Shown: piece after piece, positions 10,198 through 50,452 of the stretch
Layout of the letters: each line of letters starts with the position of its first letter
Numbering within the stretch: the first letter of the stretch is position 1
NCBI GenBank assembly: GCA_000993405.1
Contig: LBWB01000009.1
Coordinates: 13,848 to 77,847, forward strand
Direction of reading: 5' to 3'
DNA from: Candidatus Woesebacteria bacterium GW2011_GWB1_39_12
Lineage (GTDB): Bacteria; Patescibacteriota; Microgenomatia; UBA8517
DNA length: 64,000 bases
Notes under the pieces: model-generated
Databases searched by the model: none
The model's input: the letters and a program-made list of their open reading frames with translations, nothing else
What the model was told of the DNA's origin: nothing
Position numbers and translations under genes: made by a program

Positions 10198-11376
10198 TTA
10201 TTCGCTGAATTCGGAAAGAGTTGCGGAAAGTTGAAGTGTTTCACCATCGCGCCAGACTTCTAGCGTTATTGATTGACCGGCTTTTTTCTTGGAAATTAAA
10301 TCAGCCAGTCCGCCGTCGTCCCCTTTTACTTCTTCGCCGTCGAATTTAGTAATGATATCGTTTGGCTTAATCCCTGCACTTGCGGCAGGAGAATTTTCAA
10401 CCACCTCAACAACATAAGCTCCCTGCGGAACTTTATTTAAAATTGCAGTCTCCTGATCGACCATTTGGTACTGAACACCCAAGAAAGGCTTGGAGGCAAA
10501 CGATCCCGATTTTTTAAACTGATCCAGCGCATCTCTGACCAAATTAATAGGAATTGCAAATCCGATGTTTTCTGCTCCTTGAGCAACGGCAACATTAACC
10601 CCAATTACCTGTCCCGCACTATTTAGAAGCGGCCCACCCGAATTTCCGGGGTTTATGGCCGCGTCTGTTTGGATAACGTCATCTAGTCTTTCGACAAATC
10701 CCTCAAAAGCGCTACCCGCAGTAATTCCCCGACCAAGTCCCGAGATAACTCCGGTCGTAACCGTATGCCTGAATTCTCCCAAAGCAGTTCCAATGGCAAT
10801 CACAAACTGACCAACTTTGAGGTTACCCGACTCACCCAGTTCAACCGGTTGAAGCGCTTGCCCTGAGCCCGCCGAAGGGTCTATCTTTAGTACGGCTAAA
10901 TCATTCGAAGGATCGCGACTGACTTTTTGAACCTCATACTCTTTGCCGTCTTTGGTTATCACCTTATATTTAGAATCCGTATCCGAAACTACATGTTTAT
11001 TCGTTATGATAAGTCCGTCTTCGGAAACGACAAAACCGGACCCTATATCCTGAGGTTGTCCTCCCTCGATGCGAGATCTAAATCCCCCGCCAAAAGGATT
11101 AAACTCCAAAATTCTTCTCTGGGGCGTCTGGATAGAAACGGTTACCACGGATGGGGAAACGCGATCTGCAACATTTATGACAACCGATTCTTCGCTCAAG
11201 ACTTTCTGTTCAATTGTCCCGGTTCTAAAACCGCCTGAGCTATCTCTTGCAACTAAAAGGTCTAATGGCTTAATCACAAAAAATCTGTCAGCTAAAGCAC
11301 CGCCCAAGGCAGATACCAGGACAACAAACCCGACCACAAGACCTATCACTAAACCTTGAAATTTTGATCTATTCAT
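10198..11376 (-). CDS. htrA: Trypsin-like serine protease HtrA/DegP family with C-terminal PDZ domain
   Basis: N-terminal TM anchor; catalytic triad context (ITNKHVV, DLAVLKI, GNSGGPLLN); PDZ domain at C-terminus. Confidence 0.9.
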   Translation of the reverse strand: MNRSKFQGLVIGLVVGFVVLVSALGGALADRFFVIKPLDLLVARDSSGGFRTGTIEQKVLSEESVVINVADRVSPSVVTVSIQTPQRRILEFNPFGGGFRSRIEGGQPQDIGSGFVVSEDGLIITNKHVVSDTDSKYKVITKDGKEYEVQKVSRDPSNDLAVLKIDPSAGSGQALQPVELGESGNLKVGQFVIAIGTALGEFRHTVTTGVISGLGRGITAGSAFEGFVERLDDVIQTDAAINPGNSGGPLLNSAGQVIGVNVAVAQGAENIGFAIPINLVRDALDQFKKSGSFASKPFLGVQYQMVDQETAILNKVPQGAYVVEVVENSPAASAGIKPNDIITKFDGEEVKGDDGGLADLISKKKAGQSITLEVWRDGETLQLSATLSEFSE

Positions 11377-11425
11377 ATACCCACTTTACTATAACTTATC
11401 TATTCTGAGAATTTCCTGAAATTAT

Positions 11426-12697
11426 TTAAGATCCGAGTAATTCAACTGCCTTTTCCAGCTGTTCATCCTCTTCCGTATCCTCTTTATCCTCTATCTCTAT
11501 ATCCGGTTTTAAACCTCCCTCATTCACCCAGAGTCCATTAGGAGTAAGCCACTTGGCAATTGTAATATGAAGTCCTGCTCCGCCGTCAACATCCATAGGC
11601 TCTTGAATAGTTCCCTTGCCGAAAGTCGTTTCGCCTACAAGCTCTGCCCTGTTATTATCTCTTAAAGCTCCTGCCAAAATTTCCGATGCCGAGGCCGACC
11701 CTTCATTAATTAAAACAACCACATCGACCTTTCTCAGTCTTCCAATTTTTTCTACCTTGTATTCGTTTCTGGTTCCGTCTCCTCCCTCTTCGATTACGAC
11801 CGTATCTTTATTTTCCAGAAAATCGGAGGAAAGCTCTACCGCCTTCTCCAAATAGCCTCCCGGATTATTGCGCACGTCAAGAATTACACCTTTCAGGTTA
11901 GTCTTCTTGACTAGTTCTATTACCGCCTTCTCCCATTCGCTGCTCGTTTCTGCTGAAAATTTTAAAACCTTGATATAAGCAATGGAATCACCGTCACCCC
12001 TATATTCGAGAACTATACTTGGCACATTTATACTTTGTCTTACAACTTCAACCTCAAACGGCTCATCCTTGCCTTCCCTTAATAGGGTAAGAGTTACGGA
12101 GGTCCCAGCCGGACCTCTTATCGCTTCAACCGCATCCGTAATTGAAATCCCGTCTGTTCCCTCATTAATTTTTCTGGATTCGTCCTTTATGACAAGTATC
12201 AGGTCTCCCGCTCTAACACCCGCTTTTTCCGCAGGCGTGCCGGGCAAAGGCGCAATCACTGCCAACCGAGTTCCTTTAAAGCCTATTTGAATTCCAACTC
12301 CCTCGAATGTTCCTTGTAGATCCTCCTGAACTACCTTCTTCTCTTGAGGAGGCAAAAAGACTGTATAAGGGTCTCCCAAGGCAGAAACCATTCCGCGTAT
12401 TGCGCCGTAGACCATTTCGGACGGGATTATTTTTGATTTATCGTAGTATTTTGCGCCTAGGGTGTCCCAAACTTTCCAAAAAAGTTCAAAGTCTACATTT
12501 TGATTTTGAGGAATCTCTCTTGAGATTTTTACTTCTGGAAAGCCAAGGCTGGCCTTATAGCCTTTAAAACCTGAGGTATACCCTAATCCAAAAGAAACAG
12601 AAACTATAATAGCGAGAGTCAAGGCGTTTCTAACAAGACGCAGGTTAAACTTGAGAAAATTTATTTTTGACATACCAACCATTTTATACGCTTCCAC
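11426..12697 (-). CDS. ctpA: Carboxyl-terminal processing protease (S41 family) with PDZ domain
   Basis: 423 aa; S41 tail-specific protease core (GVGIQIG, NEGSASASEI). Confidence 0.85.
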   Translation of the reverse strand: MEAYKMVGMSKINFLKFNLRLVRNALTLAIIVSVSFGLGYTSGFKGYKASLGFPEVKISREIPQNQNVDFELFWKVWDTLGAKYYDKSKIIPSEMVYGAIRGMVSALGDPYTVFLPPQEKKVVQEDLQGTFEGVGIQIGFKGTRLAVIAPLPGTPAEKAGVRAGDLILVIKDESRKINEGTDGISITDAVEAIRGPAGTSVTLTLLREGKDEPFEVEVVRQSINVPSIVLEYRGDGDSIAYIKVLKFSAETSSEWEKAVIELVKKTNLKGVILDVRNNPGGYLEKAVELSSDFLENKDTVVIEEGGDGTRNEYKVEKIGRLRKVDVVVLINEGSASASEILAGALRDNNRAELVGETTFGKGTIQEPMDVDGGAGLHITIAKWLTPNGLWVNEGGLKPDIEIEDKEDTEEDEQLEKAVELLGS

Positions 12698-20529: not shown

Positions 20530-21294
20530 CTACTTTCCGGAATCAAAACCCGTATCCCACACTCTTTGATATGCCTGCATTACTCTTTCAATATCTTCGG
20601 AAGTAACTTCAGCATCTTGTGGTAAACGTAGTACAGCTCTTACAAACCCGGGTACGTCGTTATTTTCAGCATATTCATCCGCTAACGTATTTGTTAATGG
20701 AAAAAGTTGAAGCGTAAGTTTGCCTATATCAAAATATCTTTGATTTTCTACCTGATAATCACCCAAACCTGCAGCGTTCCTTTCCGCCATTCCCTCCTCA
20801 AATAATCTAAAGTATGTCTCTTCTCCTGAATTTAAATGGACTTTAATTGACAACCCATGATATCCGATTATTAAACCGCCACTAAAAAGAAGCGGCTCGG
20901 GTAAAACAGTTTCTTCCTTCGGAACACAAGCATGCGTCATTGCGTGACGAACTATATCATTAGGATCTGTGGCATCCGGAGATATAAATATTTCTCCTGG
21001 TATTGCCATTTCTGTCGTATCCGATGTTAATAATTCCTCCAAATCGTCTGGCAAATCTAATAAAGGCATTACGGTAATATCTTTAATACATTCATATTTA
21101 TCGTGCCACTGCCGAGCACCCTTCTGAATTTCAGCCGAAAATTTCTGACCAAAACCTTTGACTGTAACACCTAATTCTCTGCCGGGGGCGGTGGATGTTA
21201 TTTCAATTGACCTTATTTCTGGAGGCTTTACCACGGAACAACCAGCTAAAAGCGATCCTATTAATATACTATTTAGTCCTTCAACACGTCTCAT
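20530..21294 (-). CDS. Hypothetical lipoprotein
   Basis: Signal peptide with lipobox LLAGC; no known domain. Confidence 0.55.
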   Translation of the reverse strand: MRRVEGLNSILIGSLLAGCSVVKPPEIRSIEITSTAPGRELGVTVKGFGQKFSAEIQKGARQWHDKYECIKDITVMPLLDLPDDLEELLTSDTTEMAIPGEIFISPDATDPNDIVRHAMTHACVPKEETVLPEPLLFSGGLIIGYHGLSIKVHLNSGEETYFRLFEEGMAERNAAGLGDYQVENQRYFDIGKLTLQLFPLTNTLADEYAENNDVPGFVRAVLRLPQDAEVTSEDIERVMQAYQRVWDTGFDSGK

Positions 21295-21373
21295 GTAGGG
21301 GAGATTATAATAACCCGGGAGGTACAAATCAAATTTTCAGTTATTTCTCAGCTTCAGAGGTATAATTTAAATC

Positions 21374-22048
21374 ATGCGGATACTCGTTGTCGAAGATGAA
21401 CATAAGATTGCAAACTCGATTAAAAAAGGAATGGAGCTGGAAGGATTTGCTGTGGACATTACTTACGACGGGATAGAAGGCTACGATATGGCTTCTAGCG
21501 AAGAATATGACGTAATAATATTAGACTTGATGCTCCCCGGAATGGACGGAGTAACTCTTTGTAAAAAACTTCGTGAAGAAAAAAATCACACACCGATTTT
21601 GATGTTAACCGCAAAAGGGCAGGTTCAAGATAAAGTTTTGGGGCTTAACTCGGGCGCCGATGACTATTTAGTAAAACCTTTCGCTTTTGAAGAACTTCTG
21701 GCTCGCGTCAAAGCTCTGACGCGAAGGCCTAAAAACGGTGGCAATATAATACTTAAAACTAAAGACTTAATATTAAATACTGTAACATACGAAGTGAAAA
21801 GATCTGGGGAAAAAATAAGTTTGTCCAGAAAAGAATTCTCACTTCTCGAATATTTAATGCGTAATCCTGACAAAATTATTAGTAAAGACCAAATTATTGG
21901 CCATGTATGGGATTATGATGCAGACATTTTGCCTAATACTGTTGAAGTTTATATTGGATATTTAAGGAAAAAAATAGACTTGGCATTTCCAAATTCCACT
22001 CCCCTAATTCATACGGTGAGAGGATTCGGATATAAGATAGGAGAATAA
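21374..22048 (+). CDS. OmpR/PhoB-family response regulator (receiver + winged helix)
   Basis: VVEDE...DVIILDLMLPGMDG...LTAKG; C-terminal Trans_reg_C. Confidence 0.9.
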   Translation: MRILVVEDEHKIANSIKKGMELEGFAVDITYDGIEGYDMASSEEYDVIILDLMLPGMDGVTLCKKLREEKNHTPILMLTAKGQVQDKVLGLNSGADDYLVKPFAFEELLARVKALTRRPKNGGNIILKTKDLILNTVTYEVKRSGEKISLSRKEFSLLEYLMRNPDKIISKDQIIGHVWDYDADILPNTVEVYIGYLRKKIDLAFPNSTPLIHTVRGFGYKIGE

Positions 22049-22134
22049 ATTGTTAGATAGCTAAATAGCTGATGGTAAGATAACTTTTAGAAATTTAACA
22101 ATATAGCCATATAACCATCTAGCTATTTCTAATC

Positions 22135-23181
22135 ATGTTTCATTCAGCACGCATCAAACTAACTTTCTGGTACTTGGTCATAATCATGTTGGTAAGCGGC
22201 TTTTTCAGCCTTATTGTTTATCGTGGTTTTACAAAAGAACTCGGTCGAGGATTTCGCTTCCAAGCTCTTCACACTGCGCCAGAAAGAAGAGTTGTAGTGC
22301 AGGAACGCAACGGTTTCTTTAGAATTTTGCCTTTTATGATTTATCCTGACGAAATAGCTCCTGAAGAGTTTGTAGAGATTATTAATCTTGCAAAGCGGAG
22401 GTTCGCGCTTCAACTTTTGATTATAAATGGGGGCATTTTATTTTTAGCGGGTACGGCGGGATATTTTTTGGCCGGGAAAACGCTTCAACCTATTGAAGTT
22501 ATGGTTGACGAACAAAAACGCTTTGTTGCAGACGCATCGCACGAACTTCGTACTCCCCTGACTTCGATTAAAACCGAAGTTGAAGTTGCGTTAAGAGACA
22601 AAAAATTAAAATTGGTTGATGCAAAAGAATTGTTAAAAAGTAACTTGACGGAAATAGACAAAATGAAATATTTTTCCGATAATCTTCTGGCCTTAAGTCG
22701 CTATGAAGCAAGTGGACGAGATTTATCAATGGAAGACGTTGATTTAGCTGAAGCAGTAAGACAAGCGATTGAAAGAAATGCACCTCAAGCCAGAGAAAAG
22801 AAAATATCCATAAAGGAGGATTTGTCTGCCGTTACAGTCAAAGGAAATCCCCAAAGCTTAGTAGAACTCATTTCGATACTAATTAATAATGCGATTAAAT
22901 ACAGTCCTGAAGGTAAGGAAGTAAGAGTAAGTGTAAGGATAAAAGGAAAAAAAGCTGTAATCGAAGTTAGGGATCAGGGAATTGGTATATCCGAAAAAGA
23001 AATTCCTCACATTTTCGACCGATTTTATAGGGCAGATAGCTCGCGAAATAAAACCATAGTAGATGGCTATGGTCTTGGCCTTTCTATTGCAAAATCCATT
23101 GTTGATGCGCATAAAGGAGAAATCAAGGTTGAAAGTGAAGTTGGGAAAGGATCCAGATTTATAGTAGTTCTTCCAAGATAA
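22135..23181 (+). CDS. Sensor histidine kinase (2 TM, HisKA + HATPase_c)
   Basis: H-box VADASHELRTPLTSI; N, G1, G2 boxes. Confidence 0.9.
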   Translation: MFHSARIKLTFWYLVIIMLVSGFFSLIVYRGFTKELGRGFRFQALHTAPERRVVVQERNGFFRILPFMIYPDEIAPEEFVEIINLAKRRFALQLLIINGGILFLAGTAGYFLAGKTLQPIEVMVDEQKRFVADASHELRTPLTSIKTEVEVALRDKKLKLVDAKELLKSNLTEIDKMKYFSDNLLALSRYEASGRDLSMEDVDLAEAVRQAIERNAPQAREKKISIKEDLSAVTVKGNPQSLVELISILINNAIKYSPEGKEVRVSVRIKGKKAVIEVRDQGIGISEKEIPHIFDRFYRADSSRNKTIVDGYGLGLSIAKSIVDAHKGEIKVESEVGKGSRFIVVLPR

Positions 23182-23201
23182 CGTTTTTAGAAACTATTCA
23201 A

Positions 23202-23225
23202 AACAGATTAGTAATTCTGTTTTGC
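23202..23225 (+). terminator. Intrinsic terminator after the histidine kinase gene
   Basis: AACAGAttagtaatTCTGTT followed by TTTGC. Confidence 0.5.
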
Positions 23226-23339
23226 ACCTTCGGTGAGTTTACCACGCCTTGTGTGGCCAAGCTTTGCTTATATAACTTGGTTCAAAACTCTTGTTCGTTC
23301 CGTTAAAATACGGAACTCACGGATTTTGAAACAAGTTAT

Positions 23340-23356
23340 AAGCCTTTTCTCAGAAT
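23340..23356 (+). promoter_or_regulatory. Copy 1 of the conserved AGC(C/T)TTTTCTCAGAAT motif upstream of the Spy-like gene
   Basis: agccttttctcagaatg; see copies at 23931, 27438, 27961. Confidence 0.45.
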
Positions 23357-23417
23357 GAAGTAGTAACTTATCAATATCAAGCCCGCCTACGCTAAAAGCT
23401 ATGGCGAGGTAAAGGGG

Positions 23418-23864
23418 GTGAGAAAAATGAGCAAAAAACTTTTAATATCATTACTTACTTTAGGCGCAGTAATTTCTCTGGCTACATATGGTGTAAGTTC
23501 TATTCGAGCAAGCGAAACCGGAACTGCTAATCCGGTAATTTCTCGTCTGGCCGAAAAATTTAATTTAGAAGAAAATGATGTCGAGGCTGTATTTGATGCA
23601 GTTCACGAAGAACGCCAGGAAGAGATGAGAAAGGCAAGAGAAGAACGCTTAAACGAAGCTGTTTCCAATGGCGTGATTACAGAAGCTCAAAAGACGGCTT
23701 TGTTAGATAAGTGGGAAGAAATGCAAAACAAAAGAGAGCAGGAAAGGCTGGAAATGCAAAATTGGTTTGAGCAAGAAGGAATTGACCCAACCAAACTTGC
23801 CCCATACGGAGGTTTTGGTCACCATGAAGGATTTGGCAAAATGGGCATGGGCATGATGCACTAA
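23418..23864 (+). CDS. Secreted Spy/CpxP-like (LTxxQ-type) periplasmic protein with a Met/His-rich C-terminal tail
   Basis: Signal peptide; ITEAQKTALLDKWEEM LTxxQ-like motif; tail GGFGHHEGFGKMGMGMMH; strong RBS AAAGGGGGTGAG. Confidence 0.5.
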   Translation: MRKMSKKLLISLLTLGAVISLATYGVSSIRASETGTANPVISRLAEKFNLEENDVEAVFDAVHEERQEEMRKAREERLNEAVSNGVITEAQKTALLDKWEEMQNKREQERLEMQNWFEQEGIDPTKLAPYGGFGHHEGFGKMGMGMMH

Positions 23865-23886
23865 AATTTCTTCGCTATCGTAGAAA

Positions 23887-23919
23887 CACTCCCGCAGTAA
23901 TATGCGGGGGTGTTTTTTT
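23887..23919 (+). terminator. Rho-independent terminator
   Basis: CACTCCCGCAgtaatatGCGGGGGTG + TTTTTTT. Confidence 0.7.
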
Positions 23920-23930
23920 AGATCAAGTTC

Positions 23931-23950
23931 TTCAGCTTTTTCTCAGAATT
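23931..23950 (+). promoter_or_regulatory. Copy 2 of the conserved motif (TTCAGCTTTTTCTCAGAATT), 20 nt upstream of the adaptor gene
   Basis: Identical 17-mer to the copy at 27961. Confidence 0.5.
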
Positions 23951-23971
23951 CGATTCTACACTTAGGCTTGT

Positions 23972-25186
23972 ATGAATAAAATAAAAGCCATTTTTTCGTG
24001 GTTTTTAAAGGACAAGAAAAGAATTGTCATCGCCGTCATTATTATCGGCGTCTTGATTTTCGGTTACGGAGAAATCTTTGGCAATAAATCCAATCAAACT
24101 CAAATCCAAACCGCAAAAGCAGAAAAAGGAACAATCGTTTCTACTGTTTCCGCATCCGGTAGCGTCATCTCATCAAATATTACCAGCGTTACGACCCAAA
24201 CGAGCGGCCTTGTCAAAAAAGTATACGTAAAAGAGGGCGATAATGTGGCAGTAGGACAAAAATTAGCCGAAATTGAACTTGATTTAGACGGTGCCCAACA
24301 AAATGCATCTGCATATTCAAACTACGTCAGTGCTGTAAATTCTCTTAATTCAGCAAACAATAATCTACGAAGTGCCCAAGCATCTTTGGATGTAGTCTAT
24401 GACGAAATTAAAGGACATGATAATGACGAGTCGCTTACCATTAAAGAGACAAGAACTAAAACTGAAGTTGCGAAAGACAATGCCTACAACTCCATAATAA
24501 ATACTAAGGCAAACCTAACATCTTCTAGTTATAACTTACGCTTAAATTCGCCTGTAATTACCGCACCGACCTCTGGAAAACTAATCAGTTTAACAATTGC
24601 CGAGGGAATGTCTCTAAGCGCACTTACCTCCTCAAGCGGCACAAGAACCGGTCAAAGAGTTGCATCAATTGTTACGGAAGGAAAATCCCTCATTTCGGTC
24701 AATATTTCCGAAATTGACGTTCCGAATGTAGAAATTGGCCAAAAAGCAACCGTAACCTTCGACAGTATTACCGACAAAACTTTTTCCGGCCAGGTGGTTA
24801 CTATCGACAGAGTCGGATCAACAATAAGTAATGTCACTTCCTACCCAGCGATTATCGCTCTCGACACAAATTCCGACCAGATTCTGACTAATATGGCGGT
24901 AACTGTAAATATCATTACCCAGATTAAAAACGATGTACTTCTTATTCCAACATCTGCAGTCCAATTGCAGGGAACCGAGTCTTCCGTCAGGGTTATCAAA
25001 AATGGTGTTCAAGAGAATGTTATTGTCCAAACCGGACTTACCTCTGATTCACAAACTGAAATCACCTCAGGCCTTTTTGAAGGAGATGAAGTGATTACCT
25101 CGACCACAACTTCAACCAGCGGCACTCAAACAAGATCTGTATTTAGTACTGGCGGATTCGGTGGAGCACGATTTATCGGCAGATAA
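23972..25186 (+). CDS. HlyD/MacA-family periplasmic adaptor subunit of an ABC-type efflux pump
   Basis: N-terminal TM; biotin-lipoyl-like and beta-barrel regions (VKKVYVKEGDNVAVGQKLAEIE). Confidence 0.75.
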   Translation: MNKIKAIFSWFLKDKKRIVIAVIIIGVLIFGYGEIFGNKSNQTQIQTAKAEKGTIVSTVSASGSVISSNITSVTTQTSGLVKKVYVKEGDNVAVGQKLAEIELDLDGAQQNASAYSNYVSAVNSLNSANNNLRSAQASLDVVYDEIKGHDNDESLTIKETRTKTEVAKDNAYNSIINTKANLTSSSYNLRLNSPVITAPTSGKLISLTIAEGMSLSALTSSSGTRTGQRVASIVTEGKSLISVNISEIDVPNVEIGQKATVTFDSITDKTFSGQVVTIDRVGSTISNVTSYPAIIALDTNSDQILTNMAVTVNIITQIKNDVLLIPTSAVQLQGTESSVRVIKNGVQENVIVQTGLTSDSQTEITSGLFEGDEVITSTTTSTSGTQTRSVFSTGGFGGARFIGR

Positions 25187-25202
25187 ATCAGGAAGAATTA
25201 AT

Positions 25203-25901
25203 ATGATTGCGGTAAATCATCTATCAAAAATCTACAAAACCGATTCTGTCGAAACAATGGCTCTTTCCGATGTTTCGTTTAATATTAAAAAGGGGGAATT
25301 TGTAGCCATAATGGGCCCTTCTGGTTCGGGCAAATCTACCCTCATGCATATATTAGGAGCCTTGGATTTACCCACAAGCGGATCCTATACTTTGGACGGC
25401 GATAACGTCTCCAATCTTTCTGAAGATGAACTCGCTGATATCAGAAACAAAAAAATTGGCTTTGTTTTCCAAGCTTTTAATTTGCTTCCTCGCACAACCG
25501 CCTTGAAAAATGTCCAGCTACCTATGATCTATGCCGGAATAAAAAAAGAAGACCGCATCAAACTCGCCGAGAAATATTTAACATTGGTTGGCCTTGCCGA
25601 TCGCATGGAACACACGTCAAGCCAGCTCTCCGGTGGTCAACAACAGCGCGTCGCAATTGCCAGATCTTTAGTAATGAATCCCTCAATAATTCTCGCCGAC
25701 GAGCCAACAGGCAATATCGCTACAACCCAAGCCGAAGAAATTATGGAAATCTTCGAGCACCTAAATGACGAGGGGCACACAATTATTATGATTACTCATG
25801 AGCAAGATATTGCCGAACATGCCAAACGCATCATCACCATCCGAGACGGCAAAATTGTTGGAGACATTAAAAACGGCAAAAGAAGAAATTTAAAATCGTA
25901 A
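25203..25901 (+). CDS. ABC transporter ATP-binding protein (MacB/LolD-like)
   Basis: Walker A GPSGSGKST, signature LSGGQQQRVAIARSL, Walker B ILADEPTG. Confidence 0.9.
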   Translation: MIAVNHLSKIYKTDSVETMALSDVSFNIKKGEFVAIMGPSGSGKSTLMHILGALDLPTSGSYTLDGDNVSNLSEDELADIRNKKIGFVFQAFNLLPRTTALKNVQLPMIYAGIKKEDRIKLAEKYLTLVGLADRMEHTSSQLSGGQQQRVAIARSLVMNPSIILADEPTGNIATTQAEEIMEIFEHLNDEGHTIIMITHEQDIAEHAKRIITIRDGKIVGDIKNGKRRNLKS

Positions 25902-25904
25902 ATT

Positions 25905-27128
<1,224 letters not shown>

Positions 27129-27133
27129 GATTA

Positions 27134-27385
27134 TTCTCCTTCTACTCTACGAAATCCTTCAAGAATTTCTGCTTTTTTAGGGGTAAGTCCGAAACTTTTT
27201 AATGCCCCATCACTTCCCCCCAGATTGATTCCTAGTTCTTACATTCTTTGGTTTATTAAAGGGCTATCTTCAGTGTCAAGTTCTCTTCCCAACCCTTCTT
27301 CAATTGCCTTAATAGTATCTCGAAGTAGAATATGATCAGAACCAGTTAGTCCTTGTTTTTTCCAAAAACGATAATCAAAAGACAT
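27134..27385 (-). pseudogene. Small ORF interrupted by an in-frame TAA (possible decayed small gene)
   Basis: MSFDYRFWKKQGLTGSDHILLRDTIKAIEEGLGRELDTEDSPLINQRM*ELGINLGGSDGALKSFGLTPKKAEILEGFRRVEGE*; coding-like on both sides of the stop. Confidence 0.25.
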
Positions 27386-27437
27386 AAGCTATTTGATTCA
27401 AATCTTATTTTATCACTGATTTGTTACAAAAGCTTCA

Positions 27438-27457
27438 TTCAGCTTGTTCTCAGCAAT
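27438..27457 (+). promoter_or_regulatory. Copy 3 of the conserved motif (TTCAGCTTGTTCTCAGCAAT)
   Basis: Upstream of the 27496 gene. Confidence 0.4.
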
Positions 27458-27495
27458 GAAACTTAAAATCTAGGTCAAGAACTGAGGTGATATTT

Positions 27496-27954
27496 ATGAC
27501 AGACGAAGAGAAATCTAAACCAAATAAAAATAGTTTGCTAGTTATATCAGTAGTTGCGTTGGTTGTTGGAGTTGCAGCCTTCCTTGGCGGAATGAAATAT
27601 CAACAAACTAAATCGACAACTCGTTTTTCAGGTTTTAACGGCGAAAAAGGCCAATTTGTGCAAAGAATGGGTGGACCAAGTGGGAATGAAGCAAATTTTC
27701 AACCCATAAACGGCGAAATTATCAGCTCGGACGAGACATCAGTAACAATTAAGTTGCAAGACGGCTCGAGCAAAATTGTTCTTTTGAGTGATTCTACTTC
27801 TATCAATAAAGCGGAATCTGGTTCAAAAGAGGATTTGAAAGAAGGCGAAAAGGTTCTAGTCTTGGGAAATTCTAATTCCGACGGCAGTGTTTCTGCTCAG
27901 TCAATTCAACTCAACCCACCGGATCGAGTGATTTTCAGGCAGGAAAACCAATAA
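27496..27954 (+). CDS. Hypothetical membrane-anchored protein
   Basis: N-terminal TM, Ser/Gly-rich. Confidence 0.5.
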   Translation: MTDEEKSKPNKNSLLVISVVALVVGVAAFLGGMKYQQTKSTTRFSGFNGEKGQFVQRMGGPSGNEANFQPINGEIISSDETSVTIKLQDGSSKIVLLSDSTSINKAESGSKEDLKEGEKVLVLGNSNSDGSVSAQSIQLNPPDRVIFRQENQ

Positions 27955-27960
27955 GAAGCT

Positions 27961-27980
27961 TTCAGCTTTTTCTCAGATTT
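27961..27980 (+). promoter_or_regulatory. Copy 4 of the conserved motif (TTCAGCTTTTTCTCAGATTT), followed by TATAAT
   Basis: Upstream of the S9 peptidase gene. Confidence 0.5.
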
Positions 27981-27994
27981 CTTTTCTATAATTT

Positions 27995-29143
27995 TTGCTT
28001 TCGGTTATAATGGATTTTATGTTTTTGAAAAGCAAATTAATCATTCTTCTTCTTGGAATTTTTCTTATCGTCGCGGGAATCGTTTACCTTTCAAGAGATC
28101 GAAACATACCAAAAGTCATAGATAATCTCACTGATAACCCTAACCTCAATTTAGAAGACGAAGGGGGGTTGGAAAGCTCACAACATCCTCTTTCTATAGA
28201 AGCTTTAAGATCCGGTGAATATCCCGGAAGCGATATCGTAATTGAACAAACTCTTGAACCAGGTTCAAATTATAAAAGATATATTGCTTCATACAAATCC
28301 GAAGGCCTAAAAATTTATGGACTTTTGACCGTTCCTTCGACAGGCTCAGGACCATGGCCCGCCATCGTTTTCAACCACGGCTATATTCCCCCAACCCAAT
28401 ATCAAACAACGGAGCGATATGTAGCTTACGTCGATGGGTTTGCAAGAAACGGATATGTCGTTTTCAAACCCGATTACAGAGGTCATGGTAATTCAGAAGG
28501 AGAGCCAACAGGAGCATACGGATCAAGTGGATATACTATAGATGTTTTAAACGCAGTTTCTTCTCTAAAAAGATTAAAGAACCCCGAAAACCAGACAAGT
28601 TTATCCCGAGCGGAGTCGAGGGACTCAGGACGACTTGTTGACTCAAGTCGCATAGGTATGTGGGGACATTCTTTGGGAGGCTATGTTACTTTAAGAAGCA
28701 TGGTAATTTCCAAAGATATTAAGGCAGGTGTTATTTGGGCCGGAGTTGTCGGATCATACGAAGATCTTTTAAATAACTGGCGAAGAAGAAACACTTCTCC
28801 CCCACCCGGAATTCCAACTGGAGCAAGAAGATGGCGCCAAGAATTACAAGAAAAATTCGGAACGCCCGAACAAAATCCCGAGTTTTGGAATTCTATTTCC
28901 GCAAATTCATATTTGACTGACATTTCGGGTCCGCTACAGCTTCATCACGGAACTGCCGATGCGTCTGTTCCAATCGAATTTTCCCAAAAATTAGAAACAC
29001 AGCTGAAAGAAGCTAAAAAAGTGGTTGAATTTTATTCATATAGCGGAGATAATCATAATCTGTCGAATAATTTCTCTCTGGCAATGAGAAGGTCGGTTGA
29101 ATTTTTTGACAAATACTTGAAAAATGGCCCCGCACCAAGTTAA
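27995..29143 (+). CDS. S9 family peptidase / alpha-beta hydrolase (prolyl oligopeptidase-like), membrane-anchored
   Basis: GMWGHSLGGY nucleophile elbow; C-terminal Asp/His (HHGTADASVP). Confidence 0.7.
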   Translation: MLSVIMDFMFLKSKLIILLLGIFLIVAGIVYLSRDRNIPKVIDNLTDNPNLNLEDEGGLESSQHPLSIEALRSGEYPGSDIVIEQTLEPGSNYKRYIASYKSEGLKIYGLLTVPSTGSGPWPAIVFNHGYIPPTQYQTTERYVAYVDGFARNGYVVFKPDYRGHGNSEGEPTGAYGSSGYTIDVLNAVSSLKRLKNPENQTSLSRAESRDSGRLVDSSRIGMWGHSLGGYVTLRSMVISKDIKAGVIWAGVVGSYEDLLNNWRRRNTSPPPGIPTGARRWRQELQEKFGTPEQNPEFWNSISANSYLTDISGPLQLHHGTADASVPIEFSQKLETQLKEAKKVVEFYSYSGDNHNLSNNFSLAMRRSVEFFDKYLKNGPAPS

Positions 29144-29278
29144 TAGAAAATATTACATTGATTTTGAGTTTGCTTTTAATTTAAATCTAAAGTTTATTGA
29201 AAATATTAAATAATTAATAAACTCATATTTCATATTTTAAAAATCAACTATTAATTTGGTGCGGGGGAGGTGATTAGT

Positions 29279-29791
29279 ATGGAAGAAAATCAAGAAACAC
29301 AAAATAGCGAGATAAAAAATCGAAAACCGATGAACCCAATTCTTCTAGGCGGAATTGCCATTGTCGTACTTTTAGTCGTAGGTGGATTTTTATTTAGCCA
29401 GAGAAGAAATCAACCCGTGAGTGATGTAATGCCGGCGACTGACGAGAATGTGCAAGGAGTGGAAACCGAAGTAGATAATGCGATTGTCAAAGACGCATTG
29501 CCAACGGTCGAAACAGAACAAGTTATAAATATTGAAGCGGGATCGTTTTACTATTCACAAAAAGAAATTCGGGTTAAAAAGGGACAAACCGTAAAAATTG
29601 TGCTAACCGCCAAAGATATGATGCACGACTTTAATATTGACGAATTAGAAGTTGACGGTCCTATTATTAAGGCTGGAGAATCAACTACGATTGAATTTGT
29701 TGCGGACCGGGTTGGTGAGTTTGAATATTATTGCTCAGTCGGCCAGCACCGCGCAAACGGCCAAGTAGGAAAATTAATTATCGAGGAGTAA
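29279..29791 (+). CDS. Cupredoxin-domain (type-1 copper, plastocyanin/CoxII-like) protein with N-terminal TM anchor
   Basis: MHDF...YYCSVGQHRANGQ: His...Cys-x4-His with a Gln axial ligand. Confidence 0.65.
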   Translation: MEENQETQNSEIKNRKPMNPILLGGIAIVVLLVVGGFLFSQRRNQPVSDVMPATDENVQGVETEVDNAIVKDALPTVETEQVINIEAGSFYYSQKEIRVKKGQTVKIVLTAKDMMHDFNIDELEVDGPIIKAGESTTIEFVADRVGEFEYYCSVGQHRANGQVGKLIIEE

Positions 29792-29811: not shown

Positions 29812-29856
29812 AAAACCCCACCTTAAAGAACAGGTGGGGTTTAATTATTTTTTAAG
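29812..29856. terminator. Bidirectional intrinsic terminator between convergent genes
   Basis: AAAACCCCACCttaaagaacaGGTGGGGTTT, flanked by an A-run upstream and a T-run downstream. Confidence 0.7.
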
Positions 29857-47602: not shown

Positions 47603-47977
47603 TCATTGGGCTGGGCCGATGAGGGATTGGAGCTTGGCGACCAAACCCGTTATTGCAAAATCAGTTTTGACAATGTAGTCTTTAGCTCCCAAGCCCATTG
47701 CTTTCTCTATATCTTCTTTTTGACCTAAGTTAGAGGCAACAATAACAGGAATATTTTTCCACTCGTCATTTTTCTTCATCTCGGAAAGAACCGAGAAACC
47801 GTCCTTTTTTGGCATTACCAAGTCCAATATAATAAGATCGAATTTGCCCTTTTGAAGCGCCGCAAGTGTTTCCTCACCGTCTGCAACCAAAGTTACGTCG
47901 TATGAAGCTTTAGTAAGTTTTACTCTATAGGCATTTGCTAAAAATTTATCATCTTCGGCAACAAGTATTTTCTTCAT
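47603..47977 (-). CDS. Single-domain response regulator (CheY-like receiver) 3
   Basis: ILVAEDD...DLIILDLVMPKKDG...K; 124 aa. Confidence 0.85.
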   Translation of the reverse strand: MKKILVAEDDKFLANAYRVKLTKASYDVTLVADGEETLAALQKGKFDLIILDLVMPKKDGFSVLSEMKKNDEWKNIPVIVASNLGQKEDIEKAMGLGAKDYIVKTDFAITGLVAKLQSLIGPAQ

Positions 47978-48357
47978 GAATTCTTAAGTGTCTCGCGAAC
48001 CTTGGCAACAACTTCATCTAACTTCCAATCAGTCTTTACTAGATAGGAGTTGACTCCTTTATCTTTGCTTTCTTCAATGGTTGATGCATCGCTTAAGTTT
48101 GAAAGAATTATTACGGGAACATTTTTCCCCCACTCATCTTCCCGAAGTCTATCAAGAAGCGTAACCCCGTCCATAACCGGAAGAACGATGTCTAAAAGTA
48201 CCAGATTGGGATGTTTCTCTAAAGCTGCCGCCAAACCTTCTCCACCATCAAAAGCCTCCAAAACTTCAAACCCTCCTTTTTCCAGCTTTCTTTTTATCGC
48301 CTTAGAAAGAAGCCTCTCATCTTCTACTAATAATACGATTGTCTTTTTATCACTCAT
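47974..48357 (-). CDS. Single-domain response regulator (CheY-like receiver) 2
   Basis: 127 aa receiver domain; ATGA overlap with the next gene. Confidence 0.85.
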   Translation of the reverse strand: MSDKKTIVLLVEDERLLSKAIKRKLEKGGFEVLEAFDGGEGLAAALEKHPNLVLLDIVLPVMDGVTLLDRLREDEWGKNVPVIILSNLSDASTIEESKDKGVNSYLVKTDWKLDEVVAKVRETLKNS

Positions 48358-48389
48358 ACTACTTGCTCTTAGCCATTATAGTTTTACAC

Positions 48390-48776
48390 TCAGTTCTTTT
48401 CAACGGTTTCCCGAAGTATTTCTATAATGTCCTCAAGTCTATATTGCGCTTTTAATAAATACTGTTTTACTCCAAGTTCGAGCATCGAATTTTTCTTTTC
48501 GTCGCTGGCTGAATTACTGACTACAACAACAGGTATTTTTGCCCAGGCTTCTTTTTTCTTCAATTCCCGCATAAACTCCAATCCGTTCATGTCCTCAAGA
48601 TAGTAATCGAGCCAAATAACGTCCGGAAATTCTGTTATATTAGTTAAATAATCTATCGCTTGCTTGGCCGAAGTACACGTAATAGGTTCAAAACCCTTGC
48701 TTGTTAATTTTTTGGAAATAGCCTGAAGAAGCAGCTCTTCATCTTCAATTACCATCACTTTTATCGTTTTTTCCAT
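48390..48776 (-). CDS. Single-domain response regulator (CheY-like receiver) 1
   Basis: 128 aa receiver domain. Confidence 0.85.
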   Translation of the reverse strand: MEKTIKVMVIEDEELLLQAISKKLTSKGFEPITCTSAKQAIDYLTNITEFPDVIWLDYYLEDMNGLEFMRELKKKEAWAKIPVVVVSNSASDEKKNSMLELGVKQYLLKAQYRLEDIIEILRETVEKN

Positions 48777-48796
48777 TTCTTTTATTATATATTATC

Positions 48797-50452
48797 CTAT
48801 ATATCTATTGTAACCTCTCCTTCTTTTTGAACACTACCCGAAAGCGGTACGGCAAACCAAAACGTAGTACCCTTACCCTCATCGCTTTCAAACCAGATTC
48901 TCCCTCCTGATGATTCGACAATGGCTTTAGTCAAATATAGACCCAAGCCGGTTCCTTCGGTTTCGATCTTGATCACGTTTTCTGCTCTGAAGAATTTTTT
49001 GAAAACCTGCTCGTGCTGGCGCCTCGGAATACCGTATCCACTGTCTGAAACTTGAGAGACAACCTCGCCATTCTTTACAGATATAATAATAACGATTTCA
49101 CCCCCATCCGGCGTATATTTTATCGCATTTGTCAGAAGATTCATGTAGACGTGCCTAATGAGTCTGGGATCGATATTCACCAAAGGAAGATTCTTATGGA
49201 TGGAAATTGCTAAATGCTGTTTCTTTTTATCAAATCTTGGTCTAACTTCAAGAATCACTTCGTCAAGAAGTTTTCTTAAATCAGTCGGCTTGGGATCAAT
49301 TATAATCCTCCCTGATTCAATTCGTGAAATATTCAAAAGTGTATTCACCAGTTGAATCATGCGCTCATTAGATTGATATATATTTGTAAGAAGTTCTTCT
49401 TGCTCCTTATTCAGGTCTCCCGCGTCGCGATCTAAAAGAATTTCACAAAACCACTTCATTGCAGAAAGAGGAGTTCTGAGTTGGTGTGAAGCAAGCGAAA
49501 TAAACTCAGTCTTCATTCTATCTATTTCCTTTTCTTTGGTGATGTCTCGAAATACATCGACTCCTCCGATAACTCTGTCAAAGACTATTACGGGTGTTGC
49601 AGTTATAGAAACCGGAAATTTACTGCCGTCGCGTCTAACAAAAAAATAGTTGGTGCTCTCGATTTTTTTCTTTAGAAAAAGGGCATTTCTGATGGGACGT
49701 TCATTTACGCTTACCTCTTTATCGTCTTTGTCAAACATTTTTATCGAATACCAAATTGGTTTTCCGATGAGTTCATCTTGCTTTAGACCAGTCATGTATT
49801 CAACTTGTTGATTTGTAAAGATTATTTCCCCTCTATCGTTTATTCCAACCACGCCGTCTCCAATATTCGCAAGCATTGCGTCATCCATCGCTTTTTCCTC
49901 GGCAAGTTCTCTATTCTTACTAACAAGCTCTTCCTGAATTTTTTTCTGTTCAAGGGAAATCTGATAGGTTAACGAACTCCTCAAAAATTCCACATCTACC
50001 CAGGTAGATAAGTCTTTTAAGGTTGAGACTTCTAAGTCAGAAAATTTCCTAGGCAAGCGGTCTGCCAAAAAAAGACTCCCGACGACCGAGAGGTCCGAAG
50101 CTCTTATGGGTACGCCCGCAAAAAATCGTATTTTAGGTCCATCGGTAACATAAGGATTACTCTTAAATTCCTCATTTTGAAGAGTATCCTCAATAATAAC
50201 CATCTCTTCTTTTAAAACGACGGCGTTAGAAAAAGAAGTGCTTCGATCTTCCGTCAAGTGGTCAAGTCCCTGTATAGACTTAAACCATACCTTTTGAGCG
50301 TCAACCAAAGAAATTCCGGCGACGGGAACGGCAAAAATTTTTGAAGCAAGACGCGTAATTATTTCAAATCTCTCTTCTTTCGGAGTATTAAGAAGGTTCA
50401 AACTCGTTAGGGCTATTAATCTTTTCCTTTCTTTTTCTTTCTCAGGATCCAT
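48797..50452 (-). CDS. Cytoplasmic sensor histidine kinase (GAF-PAS-HisKA-HATPase_c)
   Basis: No TM helix; GAF N-terminus, PAS, H-box SLASHQLRTPLSAM, ATP-binding N/G boxes. Confidence 0.9.
   Translation of the reverse strand: MDPEKEKERKRLIALTSLNLLNTPKEERFEIITRLASKIFAVPVAGISLVDAQKVWFKSIQGLDHLTEDRSTSFSNAVVLKEEMVIIEDTLQNEEFKSNPYVTDGPKIRFFAGVPIRASDLSVVGSLFLADRLPRKFSDLEVSTLKDLSTWVDVEFLRSSLTYQISLEQKKIQEELVSKNRELAEEKAMDDAMLANIGDGVVGINDRGEIIFTNQQVEYMTGLKQDELIGKPIWYSIKMFDKDDKEVSVNERPIRNALFLKKKIESTNYFFVRRDGSKFPVSITATPVIVFDRVIGGVDVFRDITKEKEIDRMKTEFISLASHQLRTPLSAMKWFCEILLDRDAGDLNKEQEELLTNIYQSNERMIQLVNTLLNISRIESGRIIIDPKPTDLRKLLDEVILEVRPRFDKKKQHLAISIHKNLPLVNIDPRLIRHVYMNLLTNAIKYTPDGGEIVIIISVKNGEVVSQVSDSGYGIPRRQHEQVFKKFFRAENVIKIETEGTGLGLYLTKAIVESSGGRIWFESDEGKGTTFWFAVPLSGSVQKEGEVTIDI

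Follow-up and report, generated by a model that had tools for sequence, protein, structure and literature searches.

Tandem direct half-sites repeated at a period of 11 bp are characteristic of OmpR/PhoB winged-helix dimers. In the pho box of E. coli, two 7-bp direct repeats with a 4-bp A/T spacer replace the -35 element 10 bp before the -10 hexamer and are occupied by a tandem dimer of PhoB. CiaR activates transcription from the repeat NTTAAG-N5-TTTAAG, whose T, A and G are invariant and which stands exactly 10 nt before the -10 (PMC3091779), and htrA is reported as a CiaR target (PMC10197876). MprA of C. glutamicum binds TKTTAAGAAM at mprA, htrA and sigE (PMC12113857). The present analysis concerns a repeated element, referred to as the box, in a stretch of 64,000 nucleotides from Candidatus Woesebacteria bacterium GW2011_GWB1_39_12 (an uncultivated member of the Candidate Phyla Radiation from groundwater; contig LBWB01000009.1, positions 13,848 to 77,847; G+C ~39%), hereafter called the window. 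Six copies of the box precede genes of this stretch, and judged by sequence comparison the repeat is probably the operator of the adjacent OmpR/PhoB-type two-component system, a positively autoregulated activator of a cell-envelope regulon.

Sequence and promoter geometry of the box

The box follows the consensus TTYT(C/A)AGC-N4-TTYTCAG and thus consists of two direct half-sites of 7 bp each, separated by 4 bp of A/T, with a period of 11 bp. An earlier note on this DNA had reported four copies, located 15-75 nt upstream of start codons, with TCAG half-sites ~11 bp apart and an identical 17-mer in two of them. These observations are correct: the four copies are found on the plus strand at 23338, 23931, 27438 and 27961, 22-70 nt before the likely starts ATG 23427, 23972, 27496 and 28010 or 28019, the TCAG half-sites are exactly 11 bp apart, and the 17-mer TTCAGCTTTTTCTCAGA is identical in the copies at 23931 and 27961. 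In a search allowing up to 3 mismatches the four copies compare with 0.11 matches expected from dinucleotide-preserving shuffles (n=100), none of which reached four (0/100). A search for TCAG-N7-TCAG reveals another copy at 21336-21354, at 20 nt before the start codon of the response regulator (ATG 21374), and a weight-matrix scan a sixth on the minus strand at 11420-11402, within the 49 nt that separate the gene of an HtrA-family protease, ~10 kb away, from that of an S41 protease.

As an independent test, a matrix of 22 nt was built from 71 foreign regulator-upstream sites with the window excluded; because the pattern that extracted these training sites demanded the T, A and G of each half-site, the invariance of these positions among them is by construction. 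The six window copies score 14.6-27.7 bits with this foreign matrix, and the whole window contains 7 matches of at least 14 bits versus 0.26 expected per 64 kb, six of the seven being intergenic and on the coding strand of the next gene. The seventh match (26337-26358, minus strand, 16.8 bits) runs antisense within the MacB permease gene and is judged to be probably due to chance, since it has no -10 and is not conserved.

In all six copies a -10-like hexamer (TAnnnT) follows the second half-site at a distance of 9-11 nt, and no TTGACA-like -35 was detected at the six box promoters of the window. The individual sites are as follows.

Box 1, 21336..21354, plus strand: TTCAGTTATTTCTCAGCTT; TCAG at 21337 and 21348; 9 nt to the -10; 27.7 bits; putative autoregulatory site
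-10 of the regulator promoter, 21361..21366, plus strand: TATAAT; ATG 7 nt further
Box 2, 23338..23356, plus strand: ATAAGCCTTTTCTCAGAAT; half-sites TAAG, then TCAG; 14.6 bits
-10-like hexamer of box 2, 23364-23369, plus strand: TAACTT, 10 nt downstream of the box
Box 3, 23931..23949, plus strand: TTCAGCTTTTTCTCAGAAT; 24.7 bits
-10 of box 3, 23957-23962, plus strand: TACACT, 10 nt downstream of the box; ATG 9 nt further
Box 4, 27438..27456, plus strand: TTCAGCTTGTTCTCAGCAA; 21.5 bits
-10 of box 4, 27464-27469, plus strand: TAAAAT, 10 nt downstream of the box
Box 5, 27961..27979, plus strand: TTCAGCTTTTTCTCAGATT; 26.0 bits
-10 of box 5, 27987-27992, plus strand: TATAAT, 10 nt downstream of the box
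Box 6, 11402..11420, minus strand: TTCAGGAAATTCTCAGAAT, upstream of htrA; 19.4 bits
-10 of box 6, 11393-11388, minus strand: TATAGT, 11 nt downstream of the box

As their ATG codons lie only 7 and 9 nt past the -10, the mRNAs of the regulator and of the adaptor encoded behind box 3 should be essentially leaderless. A short spacing of 6-12 nt between -10 and ATG is also seen in most orthologous regulator genes and in about half of the adaptor genes.

The genes that follow the boxes, together with those that continue the respective operons, and the terminators among them, are listed below.

HtrA/DegP-family serine protease, 10198..11376, minus strand: 392 amino acids; Trypsin_2 (119 bits) and PDZ_2 (72 bits)
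OmpR/PhoB-family response regulator, 21374..22048, plus strand: 224 amino acids; Response_reg and Trans_reg_C
Sensor histidine kinase, 22135..23181, plus strand: 348 amino acids; HisKA and HATPase_c; two membrane helices
p145, a secreted or membrane-anchored all-helical protein, 23427..23864, plus strand: 145 amino acids; Gly/Met/His-rich tail
Intrinsic terminator after p145, ~23891-23919
MacA/HlyD-like adaptor, 23972-25186, plus strand: Pfam HlyD_D23; weak CusB-domain matches
ABC ATPase of the pump, 25203-25901, plus strand: Pfam ABC_tran
MacB-type permease, 25905-27128, plus strand: 407 amino acids; MacB_PCD (161 bits) and FtsX (74.5 bits)
Membrane-anchored DUF5666-domain protein, 27496..27954, plus strand: 152 amino acids; weak Pfam DUF5666 match (20.7 bits)
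Membrane-anchored alpha/beta hydrolase, S9/S15/S33-like, 28010..29143, plus strand: start at ATG 28010 or 28019; Peptidase_S9, Hydrolase_4 and Peptidase_S15
Membrane-anchored cupredoxin, 29279..29791, plus strand: Pfam Cupredoxin_1 and Copper-bind
Terminator after the cupredoxin gene, 29813-29852

Conservation of the box in related genomes

A scan with one genome per species yielded 80 related loci (L001-L080), from each of which ~20 kb were searched for the box in addition to the 64-kb window. The records assign these loci to Woese-, Gottesman-, Shapiro-, Levy-, Roizman-, Ames- and Woykebacteria and WWE3, at least 8 candidate phyla in all, and a few belong to metagenome-assembled genomes (MAGs) labelled Aquicultor, Actinomycetota or Anaerolineae. 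Many GTDB-representative records with a Microgenomates-type locus are titled 'uncultured Gammaproteobacteria bacterium', which, given their gene content and G+C, seems to be a placeholder or a wrong label.

Across the 80 species representatives the regulators are 66-87% identical to that of the window, and the operator is unchanged. In 75/80 loci the 90 nt before the regulator ATG contain the pattern T[CA]AG-N7-T[CA]AG; in 71 of those 75 a TATAAT-like hexamer lies 8-11 nt from the box, and the ATG usually begins 6-12 nt past the -10. In the 80 loci and the window taken together (~1.3 Mb), 185 matrix matches reach at least 15 bits. When the open reading frames downstream of these matches are clustered, the regulator is found in 77 loci, the MacA-like adaptor in 41, p145 in 14, the hydrolase in 8, the DUF5666 protein in 7, a protein with an FMN_bind domain in 5, and the cupredoxin and a 93-amino-acid membrane protein in 2 each. 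Counted per homologue, with sites of at least 15 bits within 220 nt upstream of the gene and a looser threshold of at least 12 bits where given, the box is distributed as follows.

Regulator: 76/79 homologues
MacA-like adaptor: 36/45 homologues (43/45 at the looser threshold)
p145: 14/26 homologues (25/26 at the looser threshold)
FMN_bind protein: 5/7 homologues
Hydrolase: 7/19 homologues
DUF5666 protein: 5/32 homologues
Cupredoxin: 2/7 homologues
Operon-internal controls: 0/81 kinase, 0/67 ATPase and 0/42 permease genes (0/190)

Since no box precedes their homologues, the ATPase and permease genes are taken to be operon-internal, and for the same reason the kinase gene is considered to be co-transcribed with that of the regulator. 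The distance to the -10 is likewise maintained, with TAnnnT exactly 10 nt after the second half-site in 64/79 foreign target sites. The one variable half-site position is mostly occupied by C, with A in 35/79 first but 5/79 second halves. Among orthologous p145 promoters, 13/14 carry TTTTAAGCCTTTTCTCAG, in which TAAG is the first half-site, and on account of this conservation the degenerate-looking box 2 at 23338 is regarded as genuine.

For htrA a separate metagenome scan provided 23 HtrA relatives of at least 47% identity with upstream DNA, 6 of which possess a site of at least 18 bits at a distance of 14-67 nt before the start; a -10-like hexamer stands 10 nt past each of these sites. The six are the only matches of at least 15 bits in the 455 kb retrieved, which include ~50 distant HtrA loci from other phyla.

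Taken together, direct 7-bp half-sites, the 11-bp period, the location at -35 without a -35 hexamer and the copy at the system's own operon argue for an operator of an OmpR/PhoB-type activator, and because the same promoters carry the box in ~80 related species it is very probably the binding site of the neighbouring regulator. The proposal of the earlier note that the genes behind the motif form the regulon of the neighbouring OmpR-type system is thus supported at the level of sequence by conservation, by the fixed distance to the -10, by the box at the regulator gene and by its absence within operons.

A recurrent boxed target in other genomes is an extracytoplasmic protein of ~150 amino acids with an FMN_bind domain that is absent from this window; its sites are located at 7201 in L025, 17349 in L054, 11691 in L060, 7228 in L072 and 7221 in L080. 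Together with the cupredoxin this protein suggests that the regulon may include a redox component outside the cell. In three MAGs labelled Actinomycetota, Anaerolineae and Candidatus Aquicultor (L037, L038 and L062; G+C 0.47-0.51) the same regulator (~70% identity), box, p145 and adaptor are present, and three half-sites in phase precede the regulator gene. The presence of the module in these genomes could be due to horizontal transfer, to deep conservation or to mis-binning. Box matches without a downstream open reading frame are mostly truncated p145 genes at contig ends or lone cases. One such lone case, L061 18029-18110, comprises a 19.4-bit box and -10 followed by a ~45-nt hairpin and a T-run, with no open reading frame, and the element may encode a short regulated RNA or an attenuator, which recalls the CiaR-dependent small RNAs.

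The two-component system

The regulator, kinase and HtrA proteins are identical to the NCBI entries KKQ98544, KKQ98545 and KKQ98528, respectively. Both Pfam domains of the regulator score above cut-off (PF00072 107 bits, PF00486 92 bits), and its nearest solved structure is that of DrrD (1kgs), with further full-length matches to the structures of PhoP, PrrA and MtrA. Its best NCBIfam matches are the CopR/CusR/SilR subfamily (TIGR01387, 236 bits vs a cut-off of 279) and RppA, both below cut-off; the CusR equivalog reaches 198 bits vs 420, and all named NCBIfam equivalogs (PhoB, CusR, MtrA, BaeR, OmpR and others) are missed by wide margins. For the kinase the corresponding values are 168 bits vs 293 for TIGR01386 and 155 vs 423 for the CusS equivalog. 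Among the proteins of the 64-kb window the response regulator is the only regulator of the winged-helix type.

The recognition helix NTVEVYIGYLRxKID is almost invariant in 81 orthologues, from the same genomes that keep the box. Covariation between helix and half-site was considered as a further line of evidence and is uninformative, because the helix hardly varies and TCAG and TAAG both occur within single genomes.

In the kinase orthologues the N-terminal stub, both transmembrane helices and the catalytic core are kept. The outer loop between the helices measures 35-65 amino acids and, across 76 orthologues, is unconserved and devoid of conserved His, Met or Cys residues; neither a HAMP domain nor a recognisable sensor domain was found in the kinase.

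The divergent neighbour of the regulator gene encodes a 254-amino-acid lipoprotein (21295..20530, minus strand) with the lipobox LLAGC and without a Pfam family, whose own TTGATT-17-TATAAT promoter abuts the regulator box. As a conserved co-target this gene was rejected, since in none of the other 80 loci does a homologue lie next to the regulator gene.

Proteins encoded behind the boxes

By their Pfam domains the response regulator, the kinase, the S9-like hydrolase and the cupredoxin are what the earlier note had taken them for, and its assignments of a MacA-like adaptor, an ABC ATPase and a MacB-type permease hold by Pfam, NCBIfam and PDB matches. In the pump operon (23972..27128) ATPase and permease are separate polypeptides that match the two halves of the E. 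coli MacB model, and the nearest solved structures are MacB (5gko, 5lil and 5nik, E ~1e-60), S. pneumoniae 5xu1 and MacA (4dk1, 1e-16). The label 'tripartite' is unwarranted, as an outer-membrane partner was not found in the locus: no TolC-like gene is present among the box-preceded or neighbouring genes annotated in the 21-30 kb region, and bacteria of this group are not known to have an outer membrane.

Equally, p145 had been described as a Spy/CpxP-like LTxxQ protein, a designation to which neither Pfam, NCBIfam, PDB sequence profiles nor a fold search lends a match. It belongs to no Pfam or NCBIfam family at E<=0.01, and a profile of 10 homologues run against all PDB sequences retrieves unrelated proteins with a best E of 0.9. 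The AlphaFold2 model is all-helical and of moderate confidence (mean predicted local distance difference test score 65.8), and Foldseek finds nothing in the PDB at E<1. A single (I/L)TxxQK motif is present, and the protein of this clade ends in the Met/His-rich segment HHEGFGKMGMGMMH; as signs of a Spy/CpxP relationship the two appear suggestive at most. The tail was rejected as a conserved feature of p145, since it is confined to close relatives and missing from most orthologues.

For the DUF5666 protein, an orthologue scores above the Pfam cut-off, the match of the window protein itself being weak. Upstream of the cupredoxin gene the window contains no matrix match of at least 8 bits, and this gene may be read through from the hydrolase gene. 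The HtrA protein scores 278 bits with NCBIfam degP_htrA_DO and is named 'Protease Do' at NCBI. An S41 C-terminal processing protease, CtpA/CtpB-like and with a PDZ domain, is encoded immediately upstream of htrA (11426-12697, minus strand). As box 6 sits between the two genes, htrA would have an inducible promoter of its own.

Comparison with described systems

By geometry the CiaR box appears to be the closest documented parallel to the box described here, which is meant as a likeness and not as a claim of orthology. Both systems have an OmpR-family regulator and a direct repeat with 11-bp period 10 nt before the -10, a copy of the repeat is found at the promoter of the system itself, and the regulon includes htrA (here by a box upstream of htrA in the window and in 6/23 relatives). 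With the box pattern TYT(C/A)AG-N5-TYT(C/A)AG the CiaR site shares T, A and G, which in the training sites of the matrix are fixed by the extraction pattern, and the fourth position is usually C and sometimes A; some genomes, such as L079, even carry a perfect TTTTAAG-N4-TTTTAAG, TTTTAAGCTACTTTTAAG. The differences are that the usual half-site is TCAG instead of TAAG, that the kinase has a short, unconserved loop, that the core target is a MacAB-type pump with a 145-amino-acid protein, and that no conserved small-RNA targets are seen among the box matches lacking a downstream open reading frame. The recognition helices, TVEVYIGYLRKKI here and VVEVYVSKVRKKL in CiaR, are equal at 7/13 positions, which is not discriminating.

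MprAB, again without claim to orthology, is similar in that this two-component system responds to envelope stress, is positively autoregulated and has an HtrA-family protease among its targets, and the C. glutamicum MprA motif TKTTAAGAAM resembles the half-site TTTTAAGC (PMC12113857). The published C. glutamicum motif is a loose single 10-mer, whereas the box is a strict tandem repeat; moreover, MprA also drives sigE and sigB, and no sigma-factor targets are seen here. With PhoB the system shares the architecture of the pho box, but half-site sequence and regulon differ and the NCBIfam cut-offs for PhoB/PhoR are missed.

CpxRA, BaeSR and CusRS are likewise OmpR-family systems, inducing a protease (degP, by Cpx), efflux pumps (Bae) and metal efflux (Cus). 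At the present locus, however, no CpxP/Spy homologue was found, no outer-membrane component is encoded, and the curated cut-offs for BaeR/BaeS, CpxA and CusR/CusS are missed by wide margins. The CusR box is an inverted repeat, unlike the direct TCAG repeat. BceRS-BceAB of Firmicutes resembles the locus in that a two-component system with a minimal kinase outer loop adjoins and induces an FtsX-family ABC exporter. It differs in its 10-helix permease BceB with a large loop between helices 7 and 8, in place of which a 4-helix MacB-type permease and a MacA-like adaptor are found here, and in that the regulon here is broader.

Proposed function and alternative explanations

We propose that the membrane kinase (22135-23181) would sense a disturbance at or in the membrane and phosphorylate the OmpR/PhoB-type regulator (21374-22048), a head-to-tail dimer of which would bind the two half-sites. 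Bound to the box in the -35 region, it would recruit RNA polymerase at promoters without a -35 hexamer, in the manner of PhoB at pho boxes and of CiaR at its direct repeat, and so switch on its own operon, p145, the MacA/MacB-type ABC export pump, the HtrA/DegP protease, the DUF5666 protein and the alpha/beta hydrolase, possibly together with the cupredoxin gene downstream of the latter. The MacAB-type exporter and p145 would then form the core output, with HtrA, hydrolase, DUF5666, FMN-binding and cupredoxin proteins as a variable periphery, and the whole would amount to an envelope stress response (to secretion, membrane or toxic-compound stress) of a single-membrane bacterium. Given that no outer domain is conserved in the kinase, the signal may plausibly be perceived within the membrane or through a partner, the pump or p145.

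Several points weigh against this reading. The link between regulator and box is an inference from adjacency, autoregulatory position and family-typical architecture; the peripheral targets are boxed in a minority of relatives (htrA 6/23, DUF5666 5/32, hydrolase 7/19); the scores with hidden Markov models place the regulator nearest to copper/silver-type regulators rather than to any named envelope-stress regulator; the kinase has neither a HAMP nor a recognisable sensor domain to indicate a signal; and the scans cover ~20 kb per related genome plus 64 kb of this one, which bears on genome-wide specificity and on the full list of targets.

The strongest of the alternatives would be a Bce-type detoxification system, in which box and regulator act as proposed above but the chief task is induction of the neighbouring ABC exporter in defence against antimicrobial peptides or toxic compounds, with the transporter or p145 as co-sensor for a kinase unable to sense by itself. 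The pump operon is indeed the most consistent target after the regulator (43/45 at the threshold of at least 12 bits) and lies directly downstream of the kinase in ~40 species, the kinase combines conserved membrane helices with the lack of a conserved outer domain as in intramembrane-sensing kinases, and one of the solved structures matched by the permease, S. pneumoniae 5xu1, comes from a single-membrane bacterium. However, a 4-helix MacB-type permease that has a periplasmic core domain and is paired with a MacA-like adaptor is not a 10-helix BceB, and the inclusion of htrA and several secreted proteins in the regulon speaks for a broader envelope response. This explanation is possible but rather doubtful. 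A copper or metal system of the CopRS/CusRS type, in which the kinase senses Cu or Ag and the regulon detoxifies envelope metal, would agree with the best NCBIfam matches of the regulator (CopR/CusR/SilR subfamily and RppA), the Met/His-rich tail of p145 in this clade, the weak CusB-domain matches of the adaptor and the cupredoxin gene that follows, 2/7 homologues of which are boxed elsewhere. Yet regulator and kinase both stay below the curated cut-offs, the short and unconserved outer loop does not resemble a periplasmic metal-sensor domain, most p145 orthologues are without the tail, the cupredoxin gene of the window has no box, the pump is of MacB type and neither a metal RND pump nor a P-type ATPase, and htrA, hydrolase and DUF5666 protein have no evident metal link. 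The missed cut-offs, the kinase without metal-sensor domain, the MacB-type pump and the unboxed cupredoxin gene make a copper system improbable. The parallel drawn in the earlier note to Cpx/Bae/Cus-type envelope- and copper-stress regulons is strengthened in its envelope part by an HtrA/DegP protease as recurrent target, while its copper part has little behind it.

That something else reads the box, either an alternative sigma factor or a transcription factor encoded elsewhere, is suggested by the first half-site, which occupies the -35 position. Such a reader is very improbable: the -10 is the canonical TATAAT/TAnnnT housekeeping hexamer, direct 7-bp halves with an 11-bp period and an A/T spacer bear the mark of an OmpR/PhoB winged-helix dimer and not of a sigma -35, the box precedes the regulator gene in 76/79 species and accompanies the regulator into MAGs labelled Actinomycetota, and no second winged-helix regulator is encoded in the window. 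Finally, the system might be PhoR/PhoB and the box a pho box, the geometry of which is the same, and the NCBIfam models with higher scores include PhoB, PhoR and PnpS (199, 194 and 200 bits). These values fall far short of the curated cut-offs (296, 334 and 400), and none of the genes found behind a box in the 80 loci encodes a phosphate transporter or a phosphatase. A Pho regulon is extremely unlikely.

The preferred reading, an OmpR/PhoB-type activator of envelope genes, can be extended to a bolder picture, which we offer as tentative and rather unlikely to hold in full. The system would be the principal, near-universal envelope-stress circuit of the Microgenomates within the Candidate Phyla Radiation, its sensor-less kinase would read the MacAB-type pump or p145, and the box and the htrA target would go back to an ancestral stress system of single-membrane bacteria shared with streptococcal CiaRH and actinobacterial MprAB.

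Bacteria of the Candidate Phyla Radiation are almost all uncultivated, with ~1-Mb genomes and very few regulators. No description of a regulon or operator in Patescibacteria or the Candidate Phyla Radiation was found in the literature searched, the coverage of which was incomplete, so that this absence does not amount to proof. The mechanism as such, a tandem-repeat operator of an OmpR-family activator, is textbook; the novelty lies in the group of organisms, in how far the box is conserved, in the autoregulatory site and that at htrA, and in the regulon as reconstructed here. The analysis provides a testable cis-element, a regulator to pair with it and a conserved list of targets, namely the own operon, the MacAB-type pump, p145 and the HtrA, FMN-binding, DUF5666, hydrolase and cupredoxin proteins. 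Possible uses are the prediction of inducible promoters, the assignment of an envelope role to several proteins without known function, and culture-free experiments.

Other features of the window

Rfam and tRNA scans of the window found nothing. A second signalling cluster is located at 47621-50452 on the minus strand and consists of a cytoplasmic GAF-PAS histidine kinase of 551 amino acids, then three stand-alone receiver-domain proteins (105-117 amino acids) without DNA-binding output. The gap of ~300 nt between the pump operon and box 4 (27129-27437) contains only an antisense open reading frame of 48 codons (27239-27385, minus strand), which looks like a gene remnant since the longer reading 27127-27387 has 6 stops.

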